Shown here in pieces: positions 10,110 through 62,834 of a stretch of DNA of 64,000 bases. The notes beneath the pieces were generated by a model that saw only the letters and a program-made list of their open reading frames with translations, was not told where the DNA came from and ran no database searches. Within the stretch, counting starts at the first letter, position 1, and each line of letters begins with the position of its first letter. The stretch lies in the sequence record NC_047776.2; one strand, written 5' to 3'. A program made the translations under genes and the position numbers. This DNA is from Escherichia phage ESCO5.

Positions 10110-12782
10110 ATGTTTCCAATTCCAATATTTACTATTATGACCAGCACTGGTGTCGTTCCTCTGCCAGCAGGTATTGTTAAAAAAGTAATCACTCTAGATT
10201 ACCCAGATAATGCTGGCAATTCTAATAGCAGTTTAGCAATTTTGCTTAATGATGGTAGATTGTTTACTCAAGGCGCAAACCTTTTTGGTGAGATTGCAGA
10301 TGGAACTCGTAGTGCACGATTCAATAATTTCCACTTAGCTTCTACTGTAGTAGCGGATGTGTTTACCGCAGATCGTTGTTTTGTTATTAAAACTAACAGT
10401 GGGGGATGGCAATATTCAGGATTGACAGCAGGGTTGGTAGGATCTATAGCAGCAGGTGGTACGGATGCATGTGTAACTACTTGGACCAGCTTTCCATCTG
10501 TAATAACAGGGACTATCTCTTTAGCCAATCTTAAAGAGGTTAAGGGAGGATATAACAACACTCTCTGGTTGATGAATAGTGGTGTTCTTTATGGATCAGG
10601 TCAAAACACAGTAGGCAGTTTAGGTGCAAGTACTACTAACGAAGTTTCTACTCCTCGTCAGATAACAAGTGCAGCAGTTGCTTTTGATGCAGGTTACAAC
10701 CAATGCTCTTATGTCAACAATGTGGGAACCTTGCGTGTTTGTGGGGCTAGTAAAGGTTTAGCAGGTAATAATAACACAACAACAGCTTTTGTCAATGCCA
10801 AGATATCCGCTACTGAAACAGTGTATGTCAAAGATTACATCAATACAGTTTCCCAGACAATAGTTGTAGGAGATACCTCCGGTGGCACGGGTACAGTAAA
10901 CTACTTATATGTTAGATCTAATACAGAAACAACCTACACTAAACTGGACACCTTTGCAGCAGGTTTCTCAACATGGAAATTTCCACCAAGCCGCCACTCT
11001 TTTTTCGTTGGGATCAATAATTCCTTGTGGGCTATTGGTAAGAACTACACTGCAAACTTAGGTTTGGGGTATGATTCTGCGAGCGGAGATCCACTCCAAG
11101 TGGGAAAACCAGTTAAACCTGAAGGAGTGGGTTCCTGGGATATAAACAAGCTCACAAGCGTTCATACACTGAATATGGATGTTACTAACCAATTAGGTTA
11201 TCAAGGAACCTTTTTCGTTTATAATGGAGATATGTATTATTCAGGTATTTGGAAAGATGGGAAAGCCTCGTATCTGTTCAATAGTGGTCTAAACTATAAT
11301 AAATTCACACCAATAGCAAGCTCCGTGATTACAGGGGATGTTCTGGCAACTGGCTTAACTACAGATTCTTTAGGAATTTGTATTGTAGGTGGAACTAAAC
11401 AGTTGACACATTCTGTTAGCCCAGAAGGAGGTAAACTTTTCAATATTAAATACACTTCTTCTGCCCCTGCAAACATGACAATATCATCTACTGGTTTAAT
11501 GACTTTCCATGCAGAAGGTGGTTTTGATGCAGGTATGACAGCCTTAAACGCTGAAGGAACAATTTTATCAGATACCTCTGGAGGATATGCTTCAACATTG
11601 AGTGTTTACACCCCTAGCTTATCTGCGATGGATGTAGGAACAACACAAACAATGGTAGCAGAAATAACACCAACAGGAGCAGCAAGCTTACCTGATATGG
11701 TTGTTGAGTATACAACTACAGATCCTAATGTTGCTACAGTAGATCCTACAACTGGTGTAATAACTGGTGTTGGTGATGGTGGTTGTAGGATTGGTTGCAC
11801 AGCTACGTATCAAGGTGTTGTTACCGCTTCTGATAGTTCTTATTTAACGGTGAATGCTGTTGCGGGAAAGGAGTTAGCTCCATCTCCGAGTAGTAGTTTA
11901 ACGGTTCTAAACGGATATTTCAACCACTCGGCAGATGGGGCAATTACGTTCCCAACTTTATCGGGTACTGTTACACCAGCTAACTTTGTAGTTAAGGTGG
12001 ATGACGTTGTAGTTCCTTCAAGTAAAGTAATATTTAGAAACAAAGCTTTCTCTACAGTGGATAGTTATCCAGCAGGAGAATATAGACTGGCTATTGAATT
12101 TGCAAGTGCTTCAGTAGTTAATAGTGTGGAAGTGTCTATGGAAGCAAACCCAAGTCTTTTAGAACTTTGGGGCGGTAATAGAATCAGTTATTCTACAAGC
12201 CCAGCCTCACAATTCTTAAAAGGTTGTGCTAACTTAAGACGAATAACTTCTGATTGTTTTAGTAACACATCTTACACCGGAACATCTATAAGCGGTATCT
12301 TCTCTGGCTGCACAAGTTTGACAGCTATCCCTGAAGGATTATTCAGTGATGCTTTATTTCCTTCAATGACAACAATGTCAAGCACGTTTGAAGGTTGTAC
12401 ATCTTTAACATCTATTCCTTCAGATTTATTTAAGAATCTGTCAAAAGTTACAAGATATTCTTACACCTTTAAAGATTGCACCTCTCTTGCAGAAGTTCCA
12501 GCAGGAATGTTTGATAATATTCCAACGAAAGTGACCTCTTTAACAGCTACATTCCAAGGTTGTTTAGGACTTACAGATTTTAATAAGATCTTTAATGACA
12601 ACCCAGGGTTAACTGTTTGTGGTAAACGTGGAGCATTATCTTCTTTCTTTAGTGGATGCACAAATCTTACAGGAACAGGAACAACATTAACAAATACATT
12701 AGGCGGAGTAGCTAATAGTTACCTATTCAGGTATTGCACAAAACTTTCTGATTATAACAACATTCCTTCCGGTTATAAATAA
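10110..12782 (+). CDS. tail fibre with Ig-like segment and C-terminal leucine-rich repeats
   Basis: 890 aa; Big2-like stretch (TTDPNVATVDPTTGVITGV) and six repeats of F-x-G-C-T-S-L-T-x-I-P-x-x-L-F near the C-terminus. Confidence 0.6.
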   Translation: MFPIPIFTIMTSTGVVPLPAGIVKKVITLDYPDNAGNSNSSLAILLNDGRLFTQGANLFGEIADGTRSARFNNFHLASTVVADVFTADRCFVIKTNSGGWQYSGLTAGLVGSIAAGGTDACVTTWTSFPSVITGTISLANLKEVKGGYNNTLWLMNSGVLYGSGQNTVGSLGASTTNEVSTPRQITSAAVAFDAGYNQCSYVNNVGTLRVCGASKGLAGNNNTTTAFVNAKISATETVYVKDYINTVSQTIVVGDTSGGTGTVNYLYVRSNTETTYTKLDTFAAGFSTWKFPPSRHSFFVGINNSLWAIGKNYTANLGLGYDSASGDPLQVGKPVKPEGVGSWDINKLTSVHTLNMDVTNQLGYQGTFFVYNGDMYYSGIWKDGKASYLFNSGLNYNKFTPIASSVITGDVLATGLTTDSLGICIVGGTKQLTHSVSPEGGKLFNIKYTSSAPANMTISSTGLMTFHAEGGFDAGMTALNAEGTILSDTSGGYASTLSVYTPSLSAMDVGTTQTMVAEITPTGAASLPDMVVEYTTTDPNVATVDPTTGVITGVGDGGCRIGCTATYQGVVTASDSSYLTVNAVAGKELAPSPSSSLTVLNGYFNHSADGAITFPTLSGTVTPANFVVKVDDVVVPSSKVIFRNKAFSTVDSYPAGEYRLAIEFASASVVNSVEVSMEANPSLLELWGGNRISYSTSPASQFLKGCANLRRITSDCFSNTSYTGTSISGIFSGCTSLTAIPEGLFSDALFPSMTTMSSTFEGCTSLTSIPSDLFKNLSKVTRYSYTFKDCTSLAEVPAGMFDNIPTKVTSLTATFQGCLGLTDFNKIFNDNPGLTVCGKRGALSSFFSGCTNLTGTGTTLTNTLGGVANSYLFRYCTKLSDYNNIPSGYK

Positions 12783-12813
12783 GAAAAGGAGCCATTTGGC
12801 TCCTTTCTTTTAT
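12781..12813. terminator. bidirectional rho-independent terminator between convergent gene blocks
   Basis: aggagcc-attt-ggctcct hairpin flanked by an A-run upstream and a T-run downstream, between the + fibre genes and the - replication block. Confidence 0.6.
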
Positions 12814-12838
12814 AAAAACTCTTTATAAATCAATAAGA

Positions 12839-13726
12839 TCAGAACGGAATATCATCATCGAAGTCCATCGGAGGTTCTTCTTGATTACTTGGAGTTGGTT
12901 CTGGTTGTGGTTCAGGCTTTTTAACTTCTTTCTTCTCTTCTTTCTTAGGTTGTTCTGCGGAACCACGAATGGCAGCAGCAACTTTATCAGACAGAGCCAG
13001 AACTTTACGAGCAGAATCAATCAGATCTTCTACAGATACAGTCTTAATGGTATGGTCTTTACAAGCATTAAGGATAGCGTGACCAACAGATGCCCCAAGA
13101 TCATAATCATTAATATCAACGCCACGAGATTCAGCAATTTCAGATTTCAGCGTGACAGTTGCAGATTGAACAACCCCAGCGATATCGAAAGCATCGCCTT
13201 TAACACCATTACGAATCAGTTCCAGTGCACCATTTACTGCGTGACCAGTTTCCAGACCTACAGTATCACGTTTTTTATAGGACTGTTTAGGAGCAGCATC
13301 GTTGGAACCTTTATTGCCAGAAGATTTGTTAGACTTCTGAACACCATCGGTAGACAATACTGTAATACGAGATTTTTTAGTATTGTAGTAAGTTTTACCG
13401 CCTTTATTATCAACGCGATCAATATCAATACTTACTTCTACACCTTTTTCAATAGTGATCCAGTTATCACCTTCTTTGACTTGCAGGTTTTCATAACCTT
13501 CTTTCAGTTCAATGTCACCAAGAGAAATCCAAACACCTTTCTCCTCTGGTTTAGCACCTTTCTCTTTCAGAACAAGAGAAGCTCGGTGAGTTGAAACAAT
13601 CGTTTTTCCTTCCCAATGAAAAGTTTTAGGTTCAGCGAATTTATCCAGTTTAACGTAGTCTACGATACCAGTTGCATAAGTTACGGTTTTGCCTTTACGA
13701 TCAGTTTCAGTATTAATTACGGACAT
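12839..13726 (-). CDS. putative ssDNA-binding protein with E. coli SSB-like acidic C-terminal tail
   Basis: 295 aa; Pro/Glu/Lys-rich linker and C-terminus ...MDFDDDIPF, identical in its last six residues to the E. coli SSB tail; sits at the start of the replication block. Confidence 0.55.
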   Translation of the reverse strand: MSVINTETDRKGKTVTYATGIVDYVKLDKFAEPKTFHWEGKTIVSTHRASLVLKEKGAKPEEKGVWISLGDIELKEGYENLQVKEGDNWITIEKGVEVSIDIDRVDNKGGKTYYNTKKSRITVLSTDGVQKSNKSSGNKGSNDAAPKQSYKKRDTVGLETGHAVNGALELIRNGVKGDAFDIAGVVQSATVTLKSEIAESRGVDINDYDLGASVGHAILNACKDHTIKTVSVEDLIDSARKVLALSDKVAAAIRGSAEQPKKEEKKEVKKPEPQPEPTPSNQEEPPMDFDDDIPF

Positions 13727-13742
13727 TATTATCTCCTCTATA

Positions 13743-14135
13743 TTACATTAATTTTGCACAGAAAGAGCGGAGTCTTTCCATATCATCTTGCTCTAACAGG
13801 TATTTACCTTTACCTATTCCAACTCCAATTTCACCGTTAGGGAAATGAACTATTTGCACTGGAAAACCTCCGAGTTTAATTGTGGCAGCTTTGCCTTCTT
13901 CGTCTATAACGTTTCGGATTGTATCTTGCAGTGAAATGAATTCTTTGTTTGTAACAGTGGCTTCAATTATTTCAGAGGTTTCAACACGAGCCGTTAGCTT
14001 CTTGTCTCCACCTTGAATAATCAAAATTTGAAAATAAAAAGAGTTGTCAAGACCTACAACATTTTTCTCAACTAGTGTCAAACTGGTATAATTTCCATAA
14101 ACAGTTTCAACAGCTATTTTAGAACGTTCAGTCAT
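13743..14135 (-). CDS. hypothetical protein
   Basis: 130-aa ORF, same strand and tight spacing with neighbours. Confidence 0.5.
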   Translation of the reverse strand: MTERSKIAVETVYGNYTSLTLVEKNVVGLDNSFYFQILIIQGGDKKLTARVETSEIIEATVTNKEFISLQDTIRNVIDEEGKAATIKLGGFPVQIVHFPNGEIGVGIGKGKYLLEQDDMERLRSFCAKLM

Positions 14136-14180
14136 TGAATGCTATCCTATCATAAAATGTTTAATATTGTCAAGCTTTAA

Positions 14181-14774
14181 TTACCAAGGAATATCTTCTT
14201 CTTCCAATTTGGTATCTACTTGAGGTGGACGTGGAACCTTAACCTCTTTAACAAAACGAAGATATGGAAAACGTGTAGCGATTTTAATAACATGTTTGGC
14301 ATCTTCTCTAACATCTTTGTGCAAGAAGCAGATCCCTGTTTCCAAAGTTGTTTCAAAATCTTTAGAGTAATAACAATCCTTTCCATCAAATGCAGCCTGG
14401 CAGATGGACAGATCAAACTCATTCAGAAAGGTTGTCATTACATTTGGGTCCATAATCATAAGGTTGCAAAGCTGACCGTCACGTTCAAATTCAAAAACGT
14501 GTTTAAGACCAGTAACACCCTCGTAGTTATCAGAAGCCTCTTTGTTTCCTAGCTTACGAACATTAGTTCCCATTAAAGCAGATGCAATTAGTTCTTGTAT
14601 TTGCTCTTCTGATCGATGTGCAGGAAGTGACGTATAGAAATCCAGATCACGTCCAGCAATATCAAGAATACGCCAATCACGAACAGCACCGCCAGCCAAG
14701 ACAGAATTAGGATCAGCGATCTTTAAGACAGTAAGAATTTCTTTGGCAATGTTGATTTGTTTTGATTTAGTCAT
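14181..14774 (-). CDS. nucleotidyltransferase (CCA-adding-enzyme-like head domain) with SSB-tail-like C-terminus
   Basis: 197 aa; GGAVRD...RDLDF matches the pol-beta-type nucleotidyltransferase hG[GS]...DxD signature of CCA/poly(A) enzymes; C-terminus EEEDIPW resembles the SSB tail. Confidence 0.5.
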   Translation of the reverse strand: MTKSKQINIAKEILTVLKIADPNSVLAGGAVRDWRILDIAGRDLDFYTSLPAHRSEEQIQELIASALMGTNVRKLGNKEASDNYEGVTGLKHVFEFERDGQLCNLMIMDPNVMTTFLNEFDLSICQAAFDGKDCYYSKDFETTLETGICFLHKDVREDAKHVIKIATRFPYLRFVKEVKVPRPPQVDTKLEEEDIPW

Positions 14775-14985
14775 TGATACGCTCCACAGTTACTTTAACA
14801 ATATCGTCCATATTAATCTCATCTCCCAAGACTTCAATAACACCTTCCTCATAAAGTCGAGCACATTCTTCCCATACTTCTGCTTCCGTCATTCCACCTT
14901 CAATCTTATTTGCAAGACCTTTAATAACATCTTCATTTTGTTCATCAATAAGAATTGAAACATTAAAGCTCACTAGTTTACGCAT
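14767..14985 (-). CDS. hypothetical acidic protein
   Basis: 72-aa ORF; start overlaps the upstream stop. Confidence 0.45.
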   Translation of the reverse strand: MRKLVSFNVSILIDEQNEDVIKGLANKIEGGMTEAEVWEECARLYEEGVIEVLGDEINMDDIVKVTVERIND

Positions 14986-14995
14986 TGTTTTCTCC

Positions 14996-15163
14996 TTATA
15001 CCTCTAAACGGAAAGTTTCTTTAGATACAAAATCGTATCCACCTTTTTCAAGCCAGTCATTGTAAACCTCATCAGCTTGAGACTCTATCATAAAATACCG
15101 AGTGGTAATTTCGTCTCCGACAATACGCACAATTTTATAGCAAATCATGATACCATTTCCCAT
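14996..15163 (-). CDS. hypothetical small protein (below the ORF-track cutoff)
   Basis: 55 codons; GGAGG 7 nt upstream of the ATG; TAATG overlap with the upstream gene stop. Confidence 0.3.
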   Translation of the reverse strand: MGNGIMICYKIVRIVGDEITTRYFMIESQADEVYNDWLEKGGYDFVSKETFRLEV

Positions 15164-15354
15164 TAATCTTCCTCCAGATCAATTTCATTATAGCAATGTA
15201 TGCAGTAGCCATCGTTGTGCATATGTTGTTCATAAGACATATCTTTACCACAAGACCAACAACGAATATCGCCATCGTCCCATTCACGTTCTTCTTCGCC
15301 TTCAAATGCATCTGGTAGGTAAGGCATACCAAGACAATCTAAATCGTAATGCAT
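15163..15354 (-). CDS. small zinc-ribbon protein
   Basis: 63 aa from the ATG preceded by AGGAGG (track ORF starts further upstream inside the polymerase gene); CxxC...CxxC pairs (CWSCG, CIHC). Confidence 0.45.
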   Translation of the reverse strand: MHYDLDCLGMPYLPDAFEGEEEREWDDGDIRCWSCGKDMSYEQHMHNDGYCIHCYNEIDLEED

Positions 15355-15367
15355 ATCTCCTCCTATA

Positions 15368-15385
15368 AAGGGGCAGAAGCCCCTT
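15368..15385 (-). terminator. intergenic GC hairpin after the polymerase gene (weak terminator or processing site)
   Basis: aaggggcttctgcccctt hairpin on the - strand followed by ttataggagg, then the next RBS. Confidence 0.3.
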
Positions 15386-15403
15386 ATAAAACAATATGTT
15401 AGA

Positions 15404-18400
15404 TCAATGACAGGATGCCCAGGAATTACCCACGTCATATCCGGCAGTAAGCTGAACGTTAAGATTGTAAAATTCTCCAGCCTTAGTAACAGCTAAAGCA
15501 GCAAGTTCACCTGCCCGACTATAAGCTGTAAACCATCCACCTTTGGGAGATTCATGAATGTTAGCCCAAATTTGCCCTGTCTCTTTTTCCTTATTATGCT
15601 TCCATTCTTCAACTTTAGCAAGGCATTCTTTATCAATTTTCTTTTGTTCTTCAGGATCGTCTACTTTCTTCCAACCTAATGATTCAGGTGAAAACCATTT
15701 GAATTCTACAAGGTTACGAGAAACTTCAAGCTGGGCTTCATCGTGGTATGCAATCATTTGTTGCACGAAGTCTTTATTCTTCCAGTCATCTTTAAAGAAG
15801 TCAACACTTAGTCCTTCTTCTTCGATCATATCGTCATAAATAACCATTGCACGTTTAGCACAGATAACCCCACCACTTTGGAACAGAGAGTTAAGAATCG
15901 CGTGAGCAGAACGAGTAGGAACCTTACGACCGTCAATACCCAAAACATACTGTTTACCAGTCTTAACCCAGAAATCGTTTAAACGTTCTTTAAGACGCGC
16001 CAGTGGGAATGCAGCTTCCCAGAAAGCATCGAACACCAGTTGCCCTGTAAACTTATCGCTACCAATTGTTTTAGCAACCTTGTCGGCTTGTGCACCATAG
16101 GTAATACCATACTTAACAGATTTAGCAGGACTACGTTCAAATTTACGTCCAATAGTTTCAGTGATACGTTTTGCCATCATGGTATGAACATCGTTAGGCT
16201 TCTCTAACAAGAGAGCGTTACAGTATTCATGAGGCTCCGGTTCGTAGCGCCAACAGTTTCCTGTGATGGTAATGCAGTCTTTCTGACGCATGACCCACGT
16301 ACCAAGTTCTGTTTGTGGACACCAAACATCCTCTACACCCCACTCTTCAATAGTCAAACTTTGAACAGGAATGTGAGAGCGGTTAGCCAATGTTACCACT
16401 TTTACTTTCTGCTCTTTTGTATTGAAAGCTACAGAGATATTGCCTCCATGCACCAGGTACGAGGCAGTTAAAGCTGCTTCAAAAAGTTCACCTGGGTTCT
16501 GCGCCCAACGCCAAACAGGTTTTTGTTTATGTTCATGCCAGTAACCATCTGCAATCAAGAAACCTTCCAAGAAAGCTACACGCTCGGCATGAGACATATT
16601 AACTACACGCTCTACCCACGGAACATCCCATTTACCTTGTTGAACAGAAGTTAAACTATTTACCTGATCTTGTTCCATGTTAAATGGAGCATTACAAATA
16701 ATATTATCTCCTGTGCAAAGCTCGGCAGTTGTTCTGACTTTAGGCACATAAGTATTCCCTTTACTACGGGTATTAACATACCAACGGTGATCTGCTGTTG
16801 CACGGTAAGTGTGTGATTTCCCTTTAATCTCAAACGTCTTACTATTTTTATAGAAGACCTTACCTTTTACTTTAGTCCATTCTTTCAGACCTGTTTCAGC
16901 ATTGTACCCTAAAATCTCATCCCCTTCCTTCAGGTCGTGATATCCTACCCAACCTTTACGAGTCAAAGCTTGAGCATCCATCGGCACACAGTAATGCGAC
17001 TCAATCTTTGCTTCCAAAGAGTCGAAGTCATAACCGATCTGGAAATATTTAGGAACTTCTACACCAAACAAGTTACGCATCTCCCATCCAAACAAAGATG
17101 TGACACGAGGGATATTGGCTACAGACCTATGCTTCATACGAGAGGTTGCAGCATCACATGTAGCGGCTGGGGTAGGAATACGCCCATCTGCCCTTACTGC
17201 GGCTAAGAAACCTTTATCGTATTCTTGATCTTCTTCATCTTCTTCCCAATCAGCACCGCCACCTAAAATAGAGTTCCTACGATGCTTATACGTTAAGTAT
17301 TCTACAATCTGAGTAGCATAAGGAAATTTCTCACCCAAAGCTTGCAGGTTAGGACAGATTTCTTTTTCCTGACCTTTGGTAAAACATGGGTTAGTCAATA
17401 CTTTAAGACCGCGACCTTTACCTTTTGCTATACGCTCTTGAATCTTCCTTTCCAAGGTTTCCGGTGCGCACTCCAGATGATCACAACGGTCCTGACAAAA
17501 ATTAGAAGATAAAGTTTGCTCAACGTAAGCTCGAATACCTTTCTGAAGTTCTTCCTCACTCTTTTTAATCTTGGTGCCAGATTTAAGAGTCAAATCTTTA
17601 TCTTTATATTCCGATGGTACCCAACCTAATCCTACAAGCCAGTTTTTAATATGGGTTGTATCGTTCAATGTCGCAGGGATGTTAGGATCACACAGAGGCT
17701 CATCTGCTGCAACTGGCAGTTTCCACTCTTTCCCCAACATAACTAACCACCAATCGCCATCCCTCTCTTCCAAATGACCATCATGTTTTTTAGCAAAATT
17801 GATCATATGGTTAGTTGGTTCGAGGTTCTTTTTAATTTGCAATTTAGGCGGAATAAAAGCTTTAAGATAACCTTTTGTTGCTGGTTTAGGTGGCAAAATA
17901 GGCTCAACGAGTAAACGAAGACGCTCCATTTCTGCATCCAAAAAAGCAAGGTTCTCTTCTGCTTGCTTCATATTAAAAGCAAACCCACGGTGTTCCTGGC
18001 GCGTGATAATGTCTGCTACACGTTGTTCAAGTTCAAATGGACCTTCCCATTTATCATAATCACCCCATTCTTCCATAAGGTAGTTATATACGCTCGTATT
18101 GGCTTTGTTGTCATAGATACAGTAATAAAGCATATCCGCAGCAAAAGTCTTAAATCGATCTTCTTCTGGAATCTCTTTACGGAAATCTATTTTTACATCA
18201 CCACCTGCTTTTCGAGAAAGTGCTGCCAAGCTATGTCCTGATTTGCCCTCAATCTTTCGATCTGGGTTTAACACTTTACTCAAAATCAAGGAGTCAATAA
18301 GTTTTACCTTATTTTTGCCCCACGTATTATATTTAACACTGTAATCTAATCCATAAAACAGTTTTGTAGCCAACCAGTCGTAGTTGATACCGTTGTGAGC

Positions 18401-18736
18401 CACAGCCATTTCAACCAGATATTCAGGCTTGTCTTTAAAATAACCTTCATGATTAATAAAGTCTGGGAAATCTTTTAGTTGAAAATGCGTGTAATCTTGC
18501 GCCACATACTCTTTAAGAACATATGTATATTTACCATCTGACTCTTCATAAGGACGCCCATCAAAGATGTATTTAGGGCCATCGTGGAAAGCTACTATTT
18601 CTCCTGTTTCATGGTTCTCTAAGACAATACAGTGCATTTGAAATGTGTCTTTGAGACGATAAGGACTAGCTAAATAATCAATAGTGTCATTATTCAACAA
18701 TCCGTTTGCTTCAATATCCCATGTAAACTTACTCAC
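15404..18736 (-). CDS. DNA polymerase, family A, with 3'-5' exonuclease domain and an intein-like insertion
   Basis: 1110 aa; GTG start after AGGAGG. Exo I motif DIEANG; motif A DFDSLEAKIESHY; motif B AKSVKYGITYGAQ; motif C YHDEAQLEV; about 245 extra residues between motifs A and B. Confidence 0.85.
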   Translation of the reverse strand: MSKFTWDIEANGLLNNDTIDYLASPYRLKDTFQMHCIVLENHETGEIVAFHDGPKYIFDGRPYEESDGKYTYVLKEYVAQDYTHFQLKDFPDFINHEGYFKDKPEYLVEMAVAHNGINYDWLATKLFYGLDYSVKYNTWGKNKVKLIDSLILSKVLNPDRKIEGKSGHSLAALSRKAGGDVKIDFRKEIPEEDRFKTFAADMLYYCIYDNKANTSVYNYLMEEWGDYDKWEGPFELEQRVADIITRQEHRGFAFNMKQAEENLAFLDAEMERLRLLVEPILPPKPATKGYLKAFIPPKLQIKKNLEPTNHMINFAKKHDGHLEERDGDWWLVMLGKEWKLPVAADEPLCDPNIPATLNDTTHIKNWLVGLGWVPSEYKDKDLTLKSGTKIKKSEEELQKGIRAYVEQTLSSNFCQDRCDHLECAPETLERKIQERIAKGKGRGLKVLTNPCFTKGQEKEICPNLQALGEKFPYATQIVEYLTYKHRRNSILGGGADWEEDEEDQEYDKGFLAAVRADGRIPTPAATCDAATSRMKHRSVANIPRVTSLFGWEMRNLFGVEVPKYFQIGYDFDSLEAKIESHYCVPMDAQALTRKGWVGYHDLKEGDEILGYNAETGLKEWTKVKGKVFYKNSKTFEIKGKSHTYRATADHRWYVNTRSKGNTYVPKVRTTAELCTGDNIICNAPFNMEQDQVNSLTSVQQGKWDVPWVERVVNMSHAERVAFLEGFLIADGYWHEHKQKPVWRWAQNPGELFEAALTASYLVHGGNISVAFNTKEQKVKVVTLANRSHIPVQSLTIEEWGVEDVWCPQTELGTWVMRQKDCITITGNCWRYEPEPHEYCNALLLEKPNDVHTMMAKRITETIGRKFERSPAKSVKYGITYGAQADKVAKTIGSDKFTGQLVFDAFWEAAFPLARLKERLNDFWVKTGKQYVLGIDGRKVPTRSAHAILNSLFQSGGVICAKRAMVIYDDMIEEEGLSVDFFKDDWKNKDFVQQMIAYHDEAQLEVSRNLVEFKWFSPESLGWKKVDDPEEQKKIDKECLAKVEEWKHNKEKETGQIWANIHESPKGGWFTAYSRAGELAALAVTKAGEFYNLNVQLTAGYDVGNSWASCH
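16256..16990 (-). mobile_element. putative intein (Hint domain with LAGLIDADG-like remnant) inside the DNA polymerase
   Basis: Insertion starts with Cys right after motif A (SHY|CVPMD) and ends ...ITGN|CWRY (Asn then +1 Cys); contains a TxxH block (RATADH) and a LAGLIDADG-like motif (FLEGFLIADGYW). Flanks rejoin as a normal family A motif A-to-B spacing. Confidence 0.45.
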
Positions 18737-56506: not shown

Positions 56507-56764
56507 ATGTTTTACATCAAATTAAAAGGTCACGTGATCGCGTTCAAAGATAACGCTTTTTACAGATTAGCAAAATATGCGTTAATACATCCCCACTATG
56601 TTTATATAAGGGGGCGTGATGAAATAAATATCTTTGATCAAACAACATGCGAGAACATCGAGATCCGCAAGGTTGGCGTACGTGATTATCGTACATCTTT
56701 CTACCCTTGCAAGGATTCAGCAAGTCTTTTTAAAGTATGCCAATTGTTGAAAAAAGGTGGTTAA
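56507..56764 (+). CDS. hypothetical small early-type protein
   Basis: 85-aa ORF. Confidence 0.5.
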   Translation: MFYIKLKGHVIAFKDNAFYRLAKYALIHPHYVYIRGRDEINIFDQTTCENIEIRKVGVRDYRTSFYPCKDSASLFKVCQLLKKGG

Positions 56765-56765
56765 T

Positions 56766-57323
56766 ATGGGCCGCGAATATGTGATCCAGTCTTGGGTAAA
56801 ACATGAAGCAGATGATCCGCGCATCATTCCCGATCATCTTATCGATGAATCCACGGGATATAGCGGTGAGCAAATAGGTAACAGATTAGCACGTAGTAAC
56901 GGCAACGTAAAAGCGCGTTATGTGCGCCCTGGCTGGCTGGCAAATGGTAACGCTGATTTATCCAGTGCGGAAGATGCGAGCGACGGCGCGAAAGATAATC
57001 CTTTGTACAAAGTTGATCCGGCTTTTCGTGTCCTGGATGAATACCCCAGCAAGATAGCGGCGCTCGATCAGGCCCTGGAAAGTCAGCGCATCACCTGGAC
57101 CGCTTACAACATGGCAAAAAACGTACTTGATGGTAAATTGATTCAAGCTGAAAGAAAATTAGCCAAAATTGCAGCCATAGCCCAGGAGGAAGACGAGGAG
57201 ACAACGGAAGAGGAAGAGTACGAAGAGATCCCGCCGTTGTTGTGTGTTGATGCTTTTCCTGATTATCAGCCGACAGAGGAAGAAAAAAGGATCGCACTAG
57301 AAAACTTTGAAAATAGTCTTTGA
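56766..57323 (+). CDS. hypothetical protein with strongly acidic C-terminal region
   Basis: Start placed at the ATG after GGTGG; C-terminal EEDEETTEEEEYEEIPP. Confidence 0.5.
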   Translation: MGREYVIQSWVKHEADDPRIIPDHLIDESTGYSGEQIGNRLARSNGNVKARYVRPGWLANGNADLSSAEDASDGAKDNPLYKVDPAFRVLDEYPSKIAALDQALESQRITWTAYNMAKNVLDGKLIQAERKLAKIAAIAQEEDEETTEEEEYEEIPPLLCVDAFPDYQPTEEEKRIALENFENSL

Positions 57324-57376
57324 CATATCGCCGCCACTGGCATAATATTTACCACGTAGGGCGGCAATGGTGCCGC
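57319..57376 (+). promoter_or_regulatory. promoter plus 5' stem-loop cassette
   Basis: TTGACA-N17-TAATAT plus the same ttaccacgtagggcggcaatggtgccgctca leader as at 55821 and 60166. Confidence 0.55.
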
Positions 57377-57404
57377 TCATAGTGAAATTATGCAAGAGGC
57401 TTAC

Positions 57405-57500
57405 AATGATTAATAAAGGAAATAGCTTGACGGTTGGAACGATTAACGCTATCATTCTCGCCGTTCCATTTTGGGTTGTAGTAGCGGCTATTATTTTCTA
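57405..57500 (+). CDS. hypothetical 31-aa hydrophobic peptide
   Basis: Only ORF available downstream of the cassette before the next promoter (MINKGNSLTVGTINAIILAVPFWVVVAAIIF). Confidence 0.3.
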
Positions 57501-57510
57501 AAAAATATTC

Positions 57511-57563
57511 TTGACAACGTTTTTTAATCTGATAAGATGTATCACATAGGGCGGCGGAATACT
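57511..57563 (+). promoter_or_regulatory. promoter plus 5' stem-loop cassette
   Basis: TTGACA, gataagat, hairpin gggcggcggaatacttccccgcc. Confidence 0.5.
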
Positions 57564-57592
57564 TCCCCGCCAAAACAAAAAAGGGTAACACA

Positions 57593-57955
57593 ATGAGCAA
57601 GCAAATCAATACTATCATGTTAAACCTGGTATCCTTCCGCGATGATATGAAAAATTTACCACGTGAAACGGTTGATATTCATGTTTCAGCTTATCGCGCC
57701 CTTATTGACATGTTACCGCTAAAACGTGATCAACATGCCGCTAATATGATGCTTAATGCTATGCTTAAAAAAATGATTCAAACGGATCTCACTCTGGCGT
57801 ATGAGTATCAAGGGCGCTTATATGCAACTTACAACAAGGCGGTACCTGGTCTGGGAAGTACCGAAGAGTTGCACGGCTTAAACCTGGATCAAAACACTTG
57901 GGATAGTATGCGCCGCGTTATGGTATGGGCCGAAAGCGGTAAAATTTACGAATAA
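57593..57955 (+). CDS. hypothetical early-type protein
   Basis: 120-aa ORF. Confidence 0.5.
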   Translation: MSKQINTIMLNLVSFRDDMKNLPRETVDIHVSAYRALIDMLPLKRDQHAANMMLNAMLKKMIQTDLTLAYEYQGRLYATYNKAVPGLGSTEELHGLNLDQNTWDSMRRVMVWAESGKIYE

Positions 57956-57961
57956 AAACGG

Positions 57962-58022
57962 TTGACACTGTTTAAAATTCTAGTATAGTTTACCACATAG
58001 GGCGGGAAGTGGTTTCCCGCCA
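57962..58022 (+). promoter_or_regulatory. promoter plus 5' stem-loop cassette
   Basis: TTGACA-N16-TATAGT, hairpin ggcgggaa-gtggt-ttcccgcc; leader nearly identical to the one at 58748. Confidence 0.55.
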
Positions 58023-58043
58023 ACAATGAAAAAGGTTATCATC

Positions 58044-58409
58044 ATGGCTATTAATATTAATGTTTCCTCTTATGCTACCCTGGCTAACACGGCTAAAATT
58101 GAATTATCCAGCATTGAGGCGGTGCATATTAGCGCCCGTCGCTGGTTTCAACAGTCCTACGGTAACACATATTTTTCTTTAATGGTTGACGTTGAGATCG
58201 GCGGCAAACTGATTGAAGTGGTAAACGTGCCGTTCCAATATGGATACGGGGATCACTTTGACACTGTAGCAATGGAAGAATTTAGCAAGGTTATTAATAT
58301 GGAAGGTAAAGAGTTTTCACGCGGCGAGTATCTTTCCCGTTTTTGCCGTGACAATGGGATCACTGTATACAGTCATGCAAGCGATGTTAAACGTAAAAAA
58401 GATCTATAA
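58044..58409 (+). CDS. hypothetical early-type protein
   Basis: Start placed at ATGGCT by analogy with the duplicated leader at 58830 (aaaggttatcatcATGgct). Confidence 0.5.
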   Translation: MAININVSSYATLANTAKIELSSIEAVHISARRWFQQSYGNTYFSLMVDVEIGGKLIEVVNVPFQYGYGDHFDTVAMEEFSKVINMEGKEFSRGEYLSRFCRDNGITVYSHASDVKRKKDL

Positions 58410-58415
58410 AAAGCA

Positions 58416-58476
58416 TTGACAGCACGAATAAAAAGAGTAAACTGTATTACATAGAGAGCGGGAACACTTCCCGCCT
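58416..58476 (+). promoter_or_regulatory. promoter plus 5' stem-loop cassette
   Basis: TTGACA, weak -10, hairpin agcgggaa-cac-ttcccgcc. Confidence 0.45.
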
Positions 58477-58498
58477 CACTGAAAAAGAGAGAAAAATC

Positions 58499-58738
58499 AT
58501 GGCTAAATCTAAAATTTACAACGGTCACAAAAACAAAACTCATTGGAATGTAAGCCTTTGGATCAACAACGATGAAGGTTTTTATAATCTTGCGCGTGAA
58601 TTTATTGCAGCTAACACCAATAAGAATGACGCAGCGCGTGATATGATGTTATTTCTTGAAAGTATGGATCAAGATAAAACGCCAGACGGTTACAAGTTCA
58701 GTAAAACTGCAATCCGTGCCGCTATGGTAGGAATGTAA
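58499..58738 (+). CDS. hypothetical small early-type protein
   Basis: 79-aa ORF. Confidence 0.5.
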   Translation: MAKSKIYNGHKNKTHWNVSLWINNDEGFYNLAREFIAANTNKNDAARDMMLFLESMDQDKTPDGYKFSKTAIRAAMVGM

Positions 58739-58747
58739 TAAAATAGC

Positions 58748-58807
58748 TTGACACTGATTTTTATTCTGGTATAGTTTATCACATAGGGCGGGAAGTGGTT
58801 TCCCGCC
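58748..58807 (+). promoter_or_regulatory. promoter plus 5' stem-loop cassette
   Basis: TTGACA-N16-TATAGT, hairpin ggcgggaa-gtggt-ttcccgcc. Confidence 0.55.
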
Positions 58808-58829
58808 AAATCAAAGAAAGGTTATCATT

Positions 58830-59057
58830 ATGGCTATCGTTATTGTTCGCGTATCCGGCACGGTTGGAATCTCCCAGGTAGTAGCAGTTATCACCGAGAA
58901 GAAAGGGGATGATCTTCACTCTTCCTTGAATAGCTGGGCGGTCGCTAACTTCGGGCAATGGTCGAGCGTCGAGTACATCGAATCCTACCAGGTGCCGACG
59001 ATTAGCCTAACCGATCTCAACGTTGATCGCTTGTTGTGCCTGGATGAATTAATCTGA
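58830..59057 (+). CDS. hypothetical small early-type protein
   Basis: 75-aa ORF. Confidence 0.5.
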   Translation: MAIVIVRVSGTVGISQVVAVITEKKGDDLHSSLNSWAVANFGQWSSVEYIESYQVPTISLTDLNVDRLLCLDELI

Positions 59058-59067
59058 AAAAAGATTA

Positions 59068-59124
59068 TTGACACCGGAAAGAAAAAGAGTAGAATATATT
59101 ACATAGGGCGGCAATGGTGCCGCT
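59068..59124 (+). promoter_or_regulatory. promoter plus 5' stem-loop cassette
   Basis: TTGACA-N16-TAGAAT, hairpin gggcggcaatggtgccgc. Confidence 0.55.
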
Positions 59125-59146
59125 CACAACTAAAAGAGAAATCATC

Positions 59147-59341
59147 ATGGCGCTTAAAAAACTAACAAGCAATACTCGTTGGGATGAAATTGACGGGGAA
59201 GTATACATTTTCGCCCGTAAACCAGGTGATCAAAAATGGTCAAAGGCTTTTACTTGCCACCCTGCAACAATAGACCTGATAAAAAGGGAAGGTTTACGTG
59301 AAGCGGTAGCAAGAAGTTTACTGATCCCTTATAAAAAATAG
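59147..59341 (+). CDS. hypothetical small early-type protein
   Basis: Start placed at the ATG (MALKKLTS...); the track start at 59114 lies inside the hairpin. Confidence 0.5.
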   Translation: MALKKLTSNTRWDEIDGEVYIFARKPGDQKWSKAFTCHPATIDLIKREGLREAVARSLLIPYKK

Positions 59342-59342
59342 T

Positions 59343-59405
59343 TTGACAATATGCTGTTATCTGGTAAAGTGTACGACATAGGGCGGGGCAATAAGGCAAC
59401 GCCCA
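59343..59405 (+). promoter_or_regulatory. promoter plus 5' stem-loop cassette
   Basis: TTGACA, TAAAGT, hairpin gggcg-gggcaataaggcaa-cgccc. Confidence 0.45.
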
Positions 59406-59422
59406 TTAATGAGGGTAGAATC

Positions 59423-59527
59423 ATGTTAGAGAAAATTTTCACGGTTGTAATAGTTGGCCTGGCGTTATCGGTTGGATTGGTTGCAACTATGGCTAACATG
59501 ATCCTATCTTCCCACGGTATTGGATAA
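59423..59527 (+). CDS. hypothetical 34-aa membrane peptide
   Basis: First ORF after the cassette (MLEKIFTVVIVGLALSVGLVATMANMILSSHGIG). Confidence 0.3.
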   Translation: MLEKIFTVVIVGLALSVGLVATMANMILSSHGIG

Positions 59528-59537
59528 GGTGAATCAA

Positions 59538-59753
59538 ATGATCACGAATAAGACAGGTAAAACAGAATTTTTACGCGGCTTGCAAATAGGTAAACCTGAG
59601 ATCTGGCATTGCACTAAATCCGCGCATAATGAAATGAAAGATTTTACCGCTACTTTACAACGTGTTAAAATATCTATCACACAGAAAAAAGCCTTGTTAG
59701 TAGTAGAAAACGAGATCCCGCAAACTATTATTATTGTCGAGCGTACAGCATGA
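59538..59753 (+). CDS. hypothetical small early-type protein
   Basis: Start placed at the ATG after AAGGTG (MITNKTGK...). Confidence 0.45.
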   Translation: MITNKTGKTEFLRGLQIGKPEIWHCTKSAHNEMKDFTATLQRVKISITQKKALLVVENEIPQTIIIVERTA

Positions 59754-60136
59754 AAACAGAAATCATTATTGAAATCATCAACGGCTATAAAGAAGCCTTT
59801 ATTTTTGCTGAATCAGCAAGGGATCATGAAGGTAATTTTATTGATAACTTAGACGATTATGATTTTTCTCCTAGCGCGGACGAACGGATCGCCCAAGATG
59901 TAACAGCCTTTATTAATGCTAATCTTGCCGCTATCTCTGAGGCAATGAGCGACGGCGCAACAGCCAACCAGATCGGGAATGATTTACATTTTACCCGTAA
60001 CGGTCACGGCGTAGGCTTTTGGGATCGCCCTGAAATATACACCACTAACACGGCGAACCGCCTAACCAATGCAGCTAAGTTTATGCCGAACGTGTCGGCT
60101 TACATTGGTGAAGATAATTTGATTTATATTGAATAA
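59750..60136 (+). CDS. hypothetical early-type protein
   Basis: 128-aa ORF; ATGA overlap with the upstream gene. Confidence 0.5.
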   Translation: MKTEIIIEIINGYKEAFIFAESARDHEGNFIDNLDDYDFSPSADERIAQDVTAFINANLAAISEAMSDGATANQIGNDLHFTRNGHGVGFWDRPEIYTTNTANRLTNAAKFMPNVSAYIGEDNLIYIE

Positions 60137-60142
60137 AAAGTA

Positions 60143-60254
60143 TTGACACAGATCGCCAGTGTGCTAATATTTACCACGTAGGGCGGCAATGGTGCCGCTG
60201 ACACAGATCGCCAGTGTGCTAATATTTACCACGTAGGGCGGCAATGGTGCCGCC
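60143..60254 (+). promoter_or_regulatory. tandemly duplicated promoter plus stem-loop cassette
   Basis: TTGACA at 60143-60148; the 55-bp unit gacacagatcgccagtgtgctaatatttaccacgtagggcggcaatggtgccgc(t/c) occurs twice head-to-tail (60145-60199, 60200-60254). Confidence 0.6.
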
Positions 60255-60272
60255 GATAATGAGGAAAGTAAA

Positions 60273-60572
60273 ATGGAAACTATCGCTATTGTTACCGTAG
60301 AAAAACTGGTTGTTGGTGATGTATTCGCGTTAATGGTGCCTAACAGCAGCAAGCTGGGCGCTTATGAAGTAATGGATCATAAAAATGAATCATTTGGCGA
60401 CGGTTGCACAATGGCGGTAAAATCTTTAAAGGATGGAATCATCCGCCAGGCTAACTGGCACAAAGGGAATCAAGTCGGTTTAATATCAGCTAATTTCTTG
60501 CCAGAAGAGCAAACGTTAGACCAACTATCAGGCGGTAAGACGTTAGCCGAACTACTGGAAACAGCGATCTAA
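60273..60572 (+). CDS. hypothetical early-type protein
   Basis: 99-aa ORF with RBS GAGGAAAG. Confidence 0.5.
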   Translation: METIAIVTVEKLVVGDVFALMVPNSSKLGAYEVMDHKNESFGDGCTMAVKSLKDGIIRQANWHKGNQVGLISANFLPEEQTLDQLSGGKTLAELLETAI

Positions 60573-60580
60573 TCAACAAA

Positions 60581-60596
60581 GGGGCGGCAACGCCCC
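60581..60596 (+). promoter_or_regulatory. intercistronic GC stem-loop (no -35/-10 recognised)
   Basis: ggggcg-gcaa-cgcccc between two genes, no U-tract; likely RNA stability or processing element. Confidence 0.4.
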
Positions 60597-60616
60597 ACAT
60601 CAGAAAGGAAAAGATT

Positions 60617-60853
60617 ATGAGTATTGCAACAGTATTAAACGCCGTTAAAACCGCTGAATCATCCGGCTTGCATGTTGAGCTTATAGATCAACCAGGTGGC
60701 GATCTCCTTGTCCAGGTTTACCCGCCGAAAGTAGGGGATGATTATTATTGGGCTTATTCTGATACGTTCGAACAAGTAGACACGAAAGCGATCACGGCTT
60801 TTATTTTAAAAACTATTGAAGAAAATAACTTTCATCATAACATCAATCAATAA
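60617..60853 (+). CDS. hypothetical small early-type protein
   Basis: 78-aa ORF. Confidence 0.5.
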   Translation: MSIATVLNAVKTAESSGLHVELIDQPGGDLLVQVYPPKVGDDYYWAYSDTFEQVDTKAITAFILKTIEENNFHHNINQ

Positions 60854-60863
60854 ACCATAAGCG

Positions 60864-60879
60864 GGGCGGTAACGCCCCA
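60864..60879 (+). promoter_or_regulatory. intercistronic GC stem-loop
   Basis: ggggcg-gtaa-cgcccc, same type as at 60581. Confidence 0.4.
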
Positions 60880-60907
60880 TTAAACGCAATAGGAAGAGGA
60901 TAGACGC

Positions 60908-61198
60908 ATGAAAAAGATGATCGCAGTAGTTGCCCTGGTTGTTGGTATTAACGCGCCTGTACTGGCTAATGAGTTGCCAGAATCCATCACGCTAACCGAT
61001 ATCAACGCAATAAACCGGATCGGCGTTAATTATCGCCTATGCCTTGCCGCTAAAACTTTCCAGGACGGCACGACAGAATACCACGGATTCGAGGGTATCC
61101 GCTGCGGTGAGCTTGCACGCGACCTTAAGGAAGATCCAGACCTTGAGGCCATACCGATGACCGTAAACGGTAAAGCTTACGTAAACCGCCAACAATGA
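60908..61198 (+). CDS. hypothetical secreted protein
   Basis: 96 aa; N-terminal signal-like MKKMIAVVALVVGINAPVLA. Confidence 0.5.
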   Translation: MKKMIAVVALVVGINAPVLANELPESITLTDINAINRIGVNYRLCLAAKTFQDGTTEYHGFEGIRCGELARDLKEDPDLEAIPMTVNGKAYVNRQQ

Positions 61199-61215
61199 GA
61201 AAGGTAATCATCACA

Positions 61216-61329
61216 ATGGGGATCGTAGTAGCAACGCTGGCGCTTATCCCCTTCATGGTTGAACATGTGCTGATCAGTGTTGTCCTTGTAGTCAGTGACC
61301 TATTGGAAACGGTTGGCACCTGGTTTTAA
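61216..61329 (+). CDS. hypothetical 37-aa membrane peptide
   Basis: RBS AAAGGTAA then ATG; hydrophobic product; followed by a terminator-like hairpin. Confidence 0.3.
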   Translation: MGIVVATLALIPFMVEHVLISVVLVVSDLLETVGTWF

Positions 61330-61334
61330 GATAA

Positions 61335-61366
61335 TAAATAGGGCTTGCAATAGTCCTATTTTTTGT
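61335..61366 (+). terminator. terminator-like hairpin with T-run
   Basis: Imperfect hairpin tagggc...gtccta followed by ttttttg. Confidence 0.35.
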
Positions 61367-61503
61367 TATACTTATTGAACGGGCGGCACCTGGGAGCAGG
61401 GGAAGATAATCACCGGAAGACCCCGCTATATATTGATAACTAACGCCTATCAAACAACAAAACATCAAAGGAACAAACTATCAAATCTTTACAATTCTAC
61501 CTA

Positions 61504-61562
61504 TTGACACCGGATCACGCTTACATTATTATTTATCACGTAGGGCGGGAATGTTTCCCGCC
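61504..61562 (+). promoter_or_regulatory. promoter plus 5' stem-loop cassette
   Basis: TTGACA-N17-TATTAT, hairpin ggcgggaa-tg-tttcccgcc. Confidence 0.55.
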
Positions 61563-61580
61563 TGATTTAGGAGTCATATC

Positions 61581-61814
61581 ATGATCGAACAAATTAAAAG
61601 CACTAAACCAAATGTTAACGGTAATGTTTCTCACTTTATCGGGGATAATGAAAGAGGTACACCGTACGCCGCCGTAACCGTTCAACCGAACGGGGATTAT
61701 TGGTTTACCGTGTACGGATCTTACTCTTTTGGACGTTCGGCACATGATAAGATCTTGCAAGTGGTTAAGCCTACTGGGAAGAATATCACAGCAGAAAAAT
61801 TTTATAAAAAATAG
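61581..61814 (+). CDS. hypothetical small early-type protein
   Basis: 77-aa ORF with RBS AGGAG. Confidence 0.5.
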   Translation: MIEQIKSTKPNVNGNVSHFIGDNERGTPYAAVTVQPNGDYWFTVYGSYSFGRSAHDKILQVVKPTGKNITAEKFYKK

Positions 61815-61815
61815 C

Positions 61816-61875
61816 TTGCTTTATAGCTCCTGTTAACTTATAGTTATTGCGTAGGGCGAGCAATACAGCAAGCCC
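61816..61875 (+). promoter_or_regulatory. promoter plus 5' stem-loop cassette (variant)
   Basis: TTGCTT-N17-TATAGT then gcgtagggcgagcaatacagcaagccc. Confidence 0.45.
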
Positions 61876-61892
61876 ACAAAGAGGAAAATAAA

Positions 61893-62261
61893 ATGAGCAA
61901 ATCAGCAATTAAAGCACTTGAAAAAGCACAAGAAGTGATCGCAACGTCAACCACTGGCGCAAAGGTTAATCTCGTTTGTTATCTGACAGATGAAACTATC
62001 CGTAAAAATTGGCGTAATGCTGATTTACTGGCTTGCTTATTGATTAATAGTGTCGCTAATGCTTTCCAGTGTGAAACAGCCGAGAGCCTGGAGGAAAACT
62101 TGTTTGATAATATGGATCAAGCCATTGAAACCTATATACAATCAAACCTGGATAGCTGGAACAGTAAAACATGGCCCGACAATTTACGCGATACAACTGA
62201 TCAACTGATCCGCCTTGCCCTGATGGTTGAACGCGATAACGTTCACAACCGCACAAAGTAA
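61893..62261 (+). CDS. hypothetical early-type protein
   Basis: 122-aa ORF with RBS AGAGGAAA. Confidence 0.5.
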   Translation: MSKSAIKALEKAQEVIATSTTGAKVNLVCYLTDETIRKNWRNADLLACLLINSVANAFQCETAESLEENLFDNMDQAIETYIQSNLDSWNSKTWPDNLRDTTDQLIRLALMVERDNVHNRTK

Positions 62262-62820: not shown

Positions 62821-62834
62821 TTGACAACAAAACA

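Follow-up and report, generated by a model that had tools for sequence, protein, structure and literature searches.

Does a nucleotidyltransferase-like protein of only 197 amino acids (aa), encoded by Escherichia phage ESCO5, repair the CCA ends of tRNAs, or does it act on another substrate? The gene, here called NTase, lies in a 64,000-nucleotide stretch of sequence record NC_047776.2, which was analysed at its full length and is hereafter the window. A sequence-only reading of this stretch had noticed the motif GGAVRD...RDLDF, shared with enzymes that add CCA to tRNA and with poly(A) polymerases (PAP), and had proposed that the protein restores tRNA 3' ends damaged by host defences, or else that it may nucleotidylate another substrate. 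As described below, the evidence points to the second of these options and speaks against the first: the CCA-specific motifs are not conserved, the body and tail domains are missing, and the gene is linked to replisome genes rather than to tRNA genes.

A probable class II-type nucleotidyltransferase reduced to its head

The open reading frame (ORF) of NTase is real and runs from ATG to TAA on the minus strand; the sequence-only reading had named no strand, and the plus-strand frame of the same interval is riddled with stops (Table 1). The motif that it had singled out is intact: LAGGAVRDWRILDIAGRDLDF occupies residues 26-46, including LAGGAVRD...DLDF, conforms to the motif A pattern GGxVRD plus DxD, and aligns to the CCA enzymes 6ibp, 1ou5 and 1miv. 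Taken alone, this match is weak evidence, because the Pfam profile PolyA_pol (PF01743) gives NTase 15.4 bits (E=0.025, profile positions 3-51 of 126), below its gathering cut-off of 23 bits. The same profile is matched at E<0.01 by only 11 of 90 family members and, likewise, the NCBIfam CCA equivalog TIGR02692 scores NTase at 12.2 bits, with a cut-off of 438.8. Two PHROG families designated 'nucleotidyltransferase' match the protein strongly, PHROG 10174 with E=4.2e-63 (residues 1-128 against profile positions 13-137 of 137) and PHROG 1614 with E=8.2e-12 (residues 4-189). A precomputed Pfam tag (PF26128) on one homolog, P0009, could not be reproduced with our local copy of Pfam and was left unused.

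An exhaustive profile search retrieved 1047 cluster representatives at 50% identity, 332 of them with E<=1e-10, and almost all are stand-alone proteins of 175-230 aa. Conservation was evaluated in an alignment of 90 diverse homologs, to which the residue counts given throughout refer, with a mean column identity of 23%. Despite this divergence, G28, G29, W34, D43 and D45 are invariant in all 90 sequences, and at least 90% of them share Q6, A10, A27, A30, R32 (present in 87), D33, Y84 and K164. Among 185,579 species-representative bacterial and archaeal genomes scanned, we found only six loci, all of them in contigs from metagenome-assembled genomes, so that the family is in essence confined to phages.

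The 90-sequence alignment also yielded a confident structural model, with a mean predicted local distance difference test (pLDDT) of 92.6 and a predicted TM score (pTM) of 0.85, in which the fold ends near residue 176 and a flexible tail follows; it replaced a first, poor AlphaFold2 model built from 12 sequences (pLDDT 64). The modelled fold, a Pol-beta-like sheet with flanking helices, shows the topology of the class II head domain. In Foldseek comparisons with the PDB, the top 17 chains were class II tRNA nucleotidyltransferases or poly(A) polymerases (E 2e-5 to 2e-3; TM about 0.5-0.56 over some 195 columns), followed by terminal deoxynucleotidyl transferase, pol X and terminal uridylyltransferases at TM of about 0.35, with all other Pol-beta nucleotidyltransferases scoring 8.2 or less. 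Neither profiles nor closest structures placed NTase among the minimal nucleotidyltransferases of defence and toxin-antitoxin systems (MNT, MenT/AbiEii, CD-NTase). The comparison thus returns the CCA/PAP class II head and not a different fold. The superposition with CCA/PAP enzymes extends over about 150 residues and takes in their head and first neck helix, so that the earlier description of the protein as only a head domain was essentially right: the body and tail, which bind tRNA, are absent, the protein ending at residue 197 when the class II chains matched in the PDB span 342-517 aa. From the general architecture of Pol-beta nucleotidyltransferases, we propose E95 as a candidate for the third catalytic carboxylate (Table 1).

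The motif does not occur by chance, given its invariant residues, the approximately 1047 clusters that make up the family and the high-confidence model of a CCA/PAP head. Together, these results make it very probable that NTase is a real gene for a class II-type, head-only nucleotidyltransferase from a large, phage-only family, and one that had already been annotated. Indeed, positions 12800-16000 of the window match Escherichia phage vB_EcoM_REC (OM386667.1; Stephanstirmvirinae, Phapecoctavirus), which we used as the reference genome, with 100% identity, and about 60 other phages of the phAPEC8 type with 97-98% identity. NTase itself is 100% identical to UPW40284.1 of vB_EcoM_REC, and this protein and its orthologs, in phAPEC8 and other phages, are annotated as "putative tRNA nucleotidyl transferase / poly(A) polymerase" or "nucleotidyltransferase". 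The CCA/PAP-type interpretation is thus not new, but the same as the database annotation carried since phAPEC8.

The motifs for CCA specificity are not conserved

In class II enzymes, the RRD of motif B mediates ribose discrimination, through contacts with the 2'-OH and the triphosphate, and the EDxxR of motif D is the protein template that selects CTP and ATP. At the place of motif B, NTase reads N-E-F-D in lieu of RRD, a positional equivalence that is tentative, and in the family position 118 is D in 25, E in 15 and P in 11 homologs; position 119 is N in 12, T in 12 and S in 11; and position 121 is S in 23, D in 22 and P in 19. Nearby residues are better kept, with F120 in 73, S123 in 68 and C125 in 72 of the homologs. 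Likewise, residues 155-170 fall tentatively on the motif D helix (FxEDxxRxLRxxRF), and NTase has a His at the place of the Arg of EDxxR, an equivalence that derives from spacing and from a non-significant hhalign alignment; E157 is found in only 7/90 homologs and D158 in 9/90, and position 161 is H in 56, Y in 31 and R in a single one. Conservation in this region lies instead at K164 (88/90), F169 (80/90) and P170 (67/90), with a helix at residues 160-168 of the model, and defines a motif of the family's own, Y155-x5-[HY]161-x2-K164-x4-F-P.

Beyond motif A, the sequence relationship with CCA enzymes fades. A PDB search with the single sequence returned noise, and the family profile found CCA enzymes and poly(A) polymerases over motif A only (E 0.011), so that alignments to these enzymes span just 24-40 residues. 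With hhalign, the family aligned to E. coli Cca alone with a probability of 21% over 24 columns, and globally to a seven-sequence alignment of Cca head and neck regions with a probability of 8%, in neither case significantly beyond motif A; for this reason, the equivalences for motifs B and D are tentative. The E. coli Cca query was validated by its 90% identity to an annotated Salmonella Cca. NTase and Cca cannot be told apart by isoelectric point or net charge, the head and neck regions of Cca being equally acidic.

The loss of RRD and EDxxR suggests a different nucleotide or acceptor specificity, and the invariant GG...DxD argues for retained catalysis. NTase is probably a catalytically active enzyme and probably not an orthodox, self-sufficient CCA-adding enzyme.

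NTase genes are associated with replication modules

In the window, NTase is part of a gene string with the order primase-helicase, Dam methylase, family A DNA polymerase, three small ORFs, NTase, a 130-aa protein, SSB (a protein that binds single-stranded DNA) and a strong terminator-like hairpin. The NTase start codon (14772-14774) shares bases with the stop codon of the 72-aa ORF before it (ATGA), which indicates that NTase is translationally coupled into this same-strand string. Within the polymerase-NTase-SSB part, a terminator-like hairpin is found only after SSB; it is a consensus match only, as the overall counts of terminators are not above the expectation from shuffled sequence, and scans for promoters and terminators returned background frequencies in this region. 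Synteny is kept in Justusliebigvirus PHB05, from a sister genus whose NTase is 36% identical, and in Klebsiella phage FKP3.

We extended this comparison to 80 diverse viral loci, with NTases 23-96% identical to the query, whose 1485 neighbour proteins were obtained from ORF calls and clustered. The clusters around NTase comprised primase-helicases with Toprim and DnaB_C domains (52 loci), family A DNA polymerases (42), HNH homing endonucleases (26), 5'-3' flap exonucleases (12), SSBs (9) and a second type of DNA polymerase (7). NTase adjoins the helicase and polymerase genes, or sits between them, in at least seven distinct gene orders. In 57 of the 76 NTase loci there is a primase-helicase or polymerase gene within 6 kb, and this holds for 25 of 36 lineages when NTases of >=50% identity are merged; within the same distance, a tRNA gene is found in only 3 of 60 loci.

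An SSB-like tip in one clade

The last residues of NTase, disordered past residue 176 in the model, form a flexible tail that ends in ...LEEEDIPW, an acidic run followed by I-P-aromatic (Table 1). The acidic C-terminal tails of SSB and of gp2.5 and gp4 of phage T7 dock onto partner proteins such as the polymerase and, by analogy, the NTase of this clade may use the same address tag. Of the 595 genomic ORFs with 40 aa or more, SSB and NTase are the only two that end in this manner. All homologs with 58-97% identity have an acidic tail with the tip (D/E)DDIPW, and similar tails occur in the divergent members P0016, P0160, P0131, P0014 and P0025, with the independent ends PDDIPW, DDGIPF, SDDDF, WDEEF and DFSDEW. 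Acidic tails with a terminal aromatic residue were found in 26 of the 1485 neighbourhood ORFs, with a concentration among SSBs (6-7 of 10) and primase-helicases (7-8 of 53), and also in a gp2.5-like SSB cluster and two clusters without known function. The tail is specific to a clade and could thus refine the function of the family, but it cannot define or explain its core function.

Two protein families without known function, from replication modules of other phages, also show SSB-like tips. Proteins of cluster c59 (L030:727-1416, L032:3134-3805 and L044:7807-8544; numbers preceded by L designate our survey loci; phrog_862) end in ...DIPW, DVPW or DTPW, and those of cluster c80 (L079:590-985 and L080:774-1169; no PHROG match) in ...FDDDIPF. 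They may be unrecognised SSBs or further enzymes with the same tag.

A possible role at the replication fork

NTase is a phage-specific, minimal offshoot of the class II enzymes, consisting of the catalytic head, one neck helix and a flexible acidic tail, and would work as an active, Mg2+-dependent nucleotidyltransferase that adds one or more nucleotides to a 3'-OH. It would be made together with the replication proteins and serve as an accessory of the phage replisome. Its substrate might be a replication protein or else, at the fork, the 3' end of a nucleic acid such as an RNA primer or single-stranded DNA. The EEEDIPW tip of Phapecoctavirus-like phages might lead NTase to the docking sites for SSB and helicase tails, located on the polymerase of the phage or on SSB-interacting proteins of the host. 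We tentatively favour this explanation, an accessory enzyme of the replication module that acts on a 3' end or a protein at the fork and is recruited in this clade through its SSB-like tip, although we give it somewhat less than an even chance. Its most specific version, a new class II branch that extends RNA primers or single-stranded DNA at the fork without a template, tethered by the tip in Phapecoctavirus-like phages, seems to us unlikely.

Several observations weigh against a role at the fork. The neighbourhood is circumstantial, since replication modules gather many nucleic acid enzymes and co-expression in the early or middle phase is no proof of a replisome role, and 19 of the 76 loci have no replisome gene within 6 kb. 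The SSB-like tail is present in just 3 of the 76 viral loci and in 16 of the 160 proteins collected (this clade accounts for 10 of the 16), and the NTase of the sister genus Justusliebigvirus ends in ...NNEEFKI. The residue mapping for motifs B and D derives from the profile alignment of 8% probability and from spacing, not from a three-dimensional superposition. To our knowledge, no class II-type enzyme acts on DNA or primers, and we found no published measurement of activity, substrate or interactions for any family member. Finally, the phage has no orthodox Cca, which leaves room for a role of NTase at tRNA ends.

The repair of tRNA 3' CCA ends trimmed by host defences or toxins, with tRNA binding perhaps borrowed from a partner, is accordingly the first alternative to be weighed. 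The nearest structural relatives of NTase are CCA-adding enzymes, this particular NTase keeps the E-D of motif D, and phage CCA enzymes that serve RNA repair are an accepted concept, orthodox enzymes of jumbo phages having been discussed as RNA-repair factors (Iyer et al. 2021; PMC7824862). ARAGORN found no tRNA gene within the window, in agreement with the sequence-only reading, but the contrast that it drew with a tRNA enzyme is an effect of the window's limits: some 27 kb before the window begins, the reference genome carries 10 tRNA genes. It also encodes an RNA ligase and a metallophosphatase, and a local tblastn search with seven Cca head and neck sequences detected no orthodox Cca in it (best E 0.07), so that the role of a CCA-adding enzyme would be unfilled. 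In Vibrio phage 1.101.O, a homolog adjoins a calcineurin-like phosphoesterase (L089:5615-7047) and, likewise, an orthodox tRNA nucleotidyltransferase adjoins a metallo-phosphoesterase in Synechococcus phage S-CBWM1 (L094:1-1344); a nucleotidyltransferase and phosphoesterase pair would resemble the nucleotidyltransferase and HD-phosphatase of bacterial Cca, a small point for RNA-end healing. An NTase and an orthodox Cca occurring together in one genome would speak against redundancy; the segments retrieved from Klebsiella phage FKP3 and from Vibrio phage 1.101.O contain no Cca.

Against these points, NTase lacks the body and tail domains and RRD, does not share a conserved E-D or Arg of EDxxR with its family, fails the thresholds of Pfam and NCBIfam, and belongs to a family seldom found near tRNA genes. 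The 3' CCA is encoded in the DNA of all 10 tRNA genes of the reference genome, whose products therefore need no CCA-adding enzyme for maturation, and the RNA ligase and metallophosphatase genes lie about 49 kb from NTase, which suggests an RNA-repair capacity physically apart from it. Orthodox phage Cca proteins are different and much longer: they occur in 463-552 phage records, with 36-59% identity to E. coli Cca over the head and neck, and measure 248-422 aa, NTase not being among them. Candidates for 'half-size' phage Cca genes, with tblastn matches on Cca residues 1-210 only, were rejected, as the fetched genes likewise encode 248-422 aa. We consider tRNA repair a doubtful explanation. If it were true, NTase would become the smallest CCA-type enzyme known and could show how little protein tRNA recognition requires.

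NTase might instead have a non-nucleic acid substrate and participate in host takeover or counter-defence, by nucleotidylating a protein or small molecule or by making or consuming a nucleotide signal, and be merely co-expressed with the replication genes. This appears rather improbable, because no PADLOC defence profile matches NTase, its closest folds are clearly class II enzymes that extend RNA 3' ends, and the consistent replisome neighbourhood would be left unexplained. RNA tailing in the manner of a poly(A) polymerase, by which transcripts of the host or the phage, or small RNAs, would be tagged for degradation, we regard as improbable. A catalytically dead scaffold or decoy, with a fold for binding only and a tip that competes with SSB for its partners, would suit the mimicry of the SSB tip and the conservation of E95 in just 56/90 homologs, but is very improbable, as most family members lack the tail and the invariance of GG and of both Asp of DxD, at so low a mean column identity, is the signature of retained catalysis.

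This family of about 1000 clusters at 50% identity keeps the catalytic head of CCA/PAP enzymes, has lost every element of tRNA and CCA specificity and is inherited with T7-type primase-helicase and polymerase genes, so that the GenBank label of tRNA nucleotidyltransferase or poly(A) polymerase is probably misleading for it. A replisome role, if true, would reveal an unrecognised enzymatic activity in a very well studied type of replication and the reuse of the CCA scaffold for DNA replication; specifically, action at the fork would make NTase a phage equivalent of a terminal transferase associated with the replisome, built on the scaffold of CCA enzymes.

Other features of the window and of related genomes

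Table 1. Coordinates in the window of NTase, its motifs and the neighbouring features.
Feature	Position	Strand	Basis or remarks
NTase gene (197 aa; TAA at 14181-14183)	14181..14774	-	ORF list and translation; PHROG 10174; identity to UPW40284.1
Ribosome-binding site GGAG, 7 nt 5' of the NTase ATG	14782..14785	-	sequence inspection
Motif A, residues 26-47, LAGGAVRDWRILDIAGRDLDFY	14634..14699	-	GG/RD triphosphate-binding turn; DxD metal carboxylates D43 and D45
E95, candidate third carboxylate, central beta-strand (VFEFE)	14490..14492	-	E 56/90, N 13, D 7
Motif-B-like F120-D-L-S-I-C125, at the place of class II RRDxTIN	14400..14417	-	spacing and non-significant hhalign; tentative
Motif-D-like helix, residues 155-170, VREDAKHVIKIATRFP	14265..14312	-	E-D-A-K-H versus class II E-D-x-x-R; tentative
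Flexible tail, residues 179-197	14184..14240	-	no secondary structure past 176; block pLDDT 70 and 68
Tail tip E-E-E-D-I-P-W	14184-14204	-	resembles SSB tip D-D-D-I-P-F
Family A (T7-type) DNA polymerase	15404..18736	-	Pfam DNA_pol_A, annotation, ORFs; upstream, same gene string
Three small ORFs between polymerase and NTase	14767-14985, 14996-15163, 15163-15438		ORF calls
130-aa gene, phrog_16560, no Pfam match	13743..14135	-	downstream of NTase
Phage SSB, 295 aa, C-terminus ...MDFDDDIPF	12839..13726	-	annotation, PHROG SSB families (C-terminal part), translation
Bidirectional terminator-like hairpin, end of polymerase-NTase-SSB string	12784..12807	.	10-bp stem, 5 GC pairs, T-run on both strands

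The gene string contains further features of interest. The phrog_16560 protein is always located between NTase and SSB in the Stephanstirmvirinae (9 loci, cluster c5), and could be a partner of either of them. Just upstream of its gene, at 14144-14173, there is a sigma-70-like sequence (TTGACA-18-TAGGAT) with an extended TG, in a region where promoter-like sites appear at background frequency. At E<=0.001, no Pfam SSB/OB family matches the SSB, and the PHROG SSB families match only its C-terminal third. Its last eight residues, DFDDDIPF, match the tip of E. coli SSB, which suggests that the phage SSB engages host SSB-interacting proteins. In the SSB of Justusliebigvirus PHB05 (L005:6026-6973), DDDIPF is internal and followed by 17 further residues.

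Compared with the 859-aa ortholog of Justusliebigvirus PHB05, where the junction reads ...IESHYC|WRYE, the DNA polymerase (1110 aa) contains a precise insertion of 245 aa, from Cys583 to Asn827 and followed by Cys828 (window 16256-16990, minus strand). With a Cys at position 1, an Asn-Cys end and an internal LAGLIDADG-like 'LEGFLIADGYW', the insertion looks like an intein with a homing endonuclease, and has no Pfam intein domain at E<=0.001. Converging on the string from the plus strand, positions 10110-12782 encode an 890-aa protein next to the tail-spike genes, in which an RCC1-like beta-propeller is joined to a Big_2 Ig-like domain and to C-terminal 'F.GCTSLTSIP' repeats recognised by eye (BspA-like leucine-rich repeats); it is probably a receptor-binding or host-surface protein.

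Outside the region that is identical to vB_EcoM_REC, positions 56752-64000 of the window show 85-98% identity to this phage, with indels and several kb of it missing, and the last 179 bases match the start of its record, so that the window crosses the arbitrary start point of that record. From these comparisons, ESCO5 appears to be a very close relative of vB_EcoM_REC with a different complement of small early genes. Beyond the part covered by the window, OM386667.1 encodes a full dTDP-rhamnose pathway (rmlA-D-like; L002:32966-36244), a Sir2-like protein (L002:19991-20791) and the RNA ligase/metallophosphatase pair (L003:2029-3514).

Comparison with known systems

The class II tRNA nucleotidyltransferases (1miv, 3h37, 3wfr, 1vfg and E. 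coli Cca) are proteins of about 350-420 aa, and differ from the 197-aa NTase in having a body, a tail and an HD domain, and in the RRD and EDxxR that are unconserved across the NTase family. NTases further differ from them in being found only in phages, in a replisome gene neighbourhood, and in falling below the Pfam and NCBIfam cut-offs. The minimal Pol-beta nucleotidyltransferases (MNT/HEPN antitoxins, MenT/AbiEii toxins, RlaP, and aminoglycoside and lincosamide nucleotidyltransferases) share with NTase their small size and a Pol-beta core with GS/GG...DxD. The bacterial poly(A) polymerase I (PcnB; 3aql, 3aqk) has a C-terminal RNA-binding region that is absent from NTase. A stand-alone protein described as 'CCA-adding enzyme head domain' is also known from Streptococcus pneumoniae (NP_344798.1; PDB 2la3, 191 aa), but it is bacterial; it showed no sequence similarity to the NTase family in the PDB profile search, even at E up to 10, and we found no functional paper on it in the literature.

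In the viral structure library BFVD, close members of the family, including ORF223 of phage ICP1, superpose with TM of about 0.8. The ICP1 protein (L006:3956-4375), of 139 aa, has the head sheet with GGAPRDW...DLDFY and is devoid of the C-terminal H..K....FP helix; its gene lies near those for DNA ligase, PRPP synthetase and nicotinate phosphoribosyltransferase, with no polymerase nearby. More distant matches in the same library were Autographiviridae proteins designated 'PolyA_pol head domain / nucleotidyltransferase' (TM 0.57-0.63, E 1e-6 to 1e-7). The small nucleotidyltransferases of these phages (Pectobacterium PP47, Q19 and PP2, Dickeya Ninurta, Aeromonas phiAS7) are 165-230 aa long and have the same fold as NTase, a likeness of fold at only 13-19% identity, and no SSB-like tail has been reported for them. 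They were described as putative tRNA nucleotidyltransferases found only in phages and encoded between the primase/helicase and the DNA polymerase, with no biochemistry reported, and their role was called an open question (Evseev et al. 2020; PMC7693777).

At its extreme C-terminus, the likeness of NTase is to proteins of another kind. E. coli SSB (...DDDIPF) and gp2.5 and gp4 of T7 end, like NTase, in an acidic run followed by I-P-aromatic; in NTase, however, this tip is borne by an enzyme, and not by an OB-fold SSB or a helicase, and its terminal residue is Trp instead of Phe.

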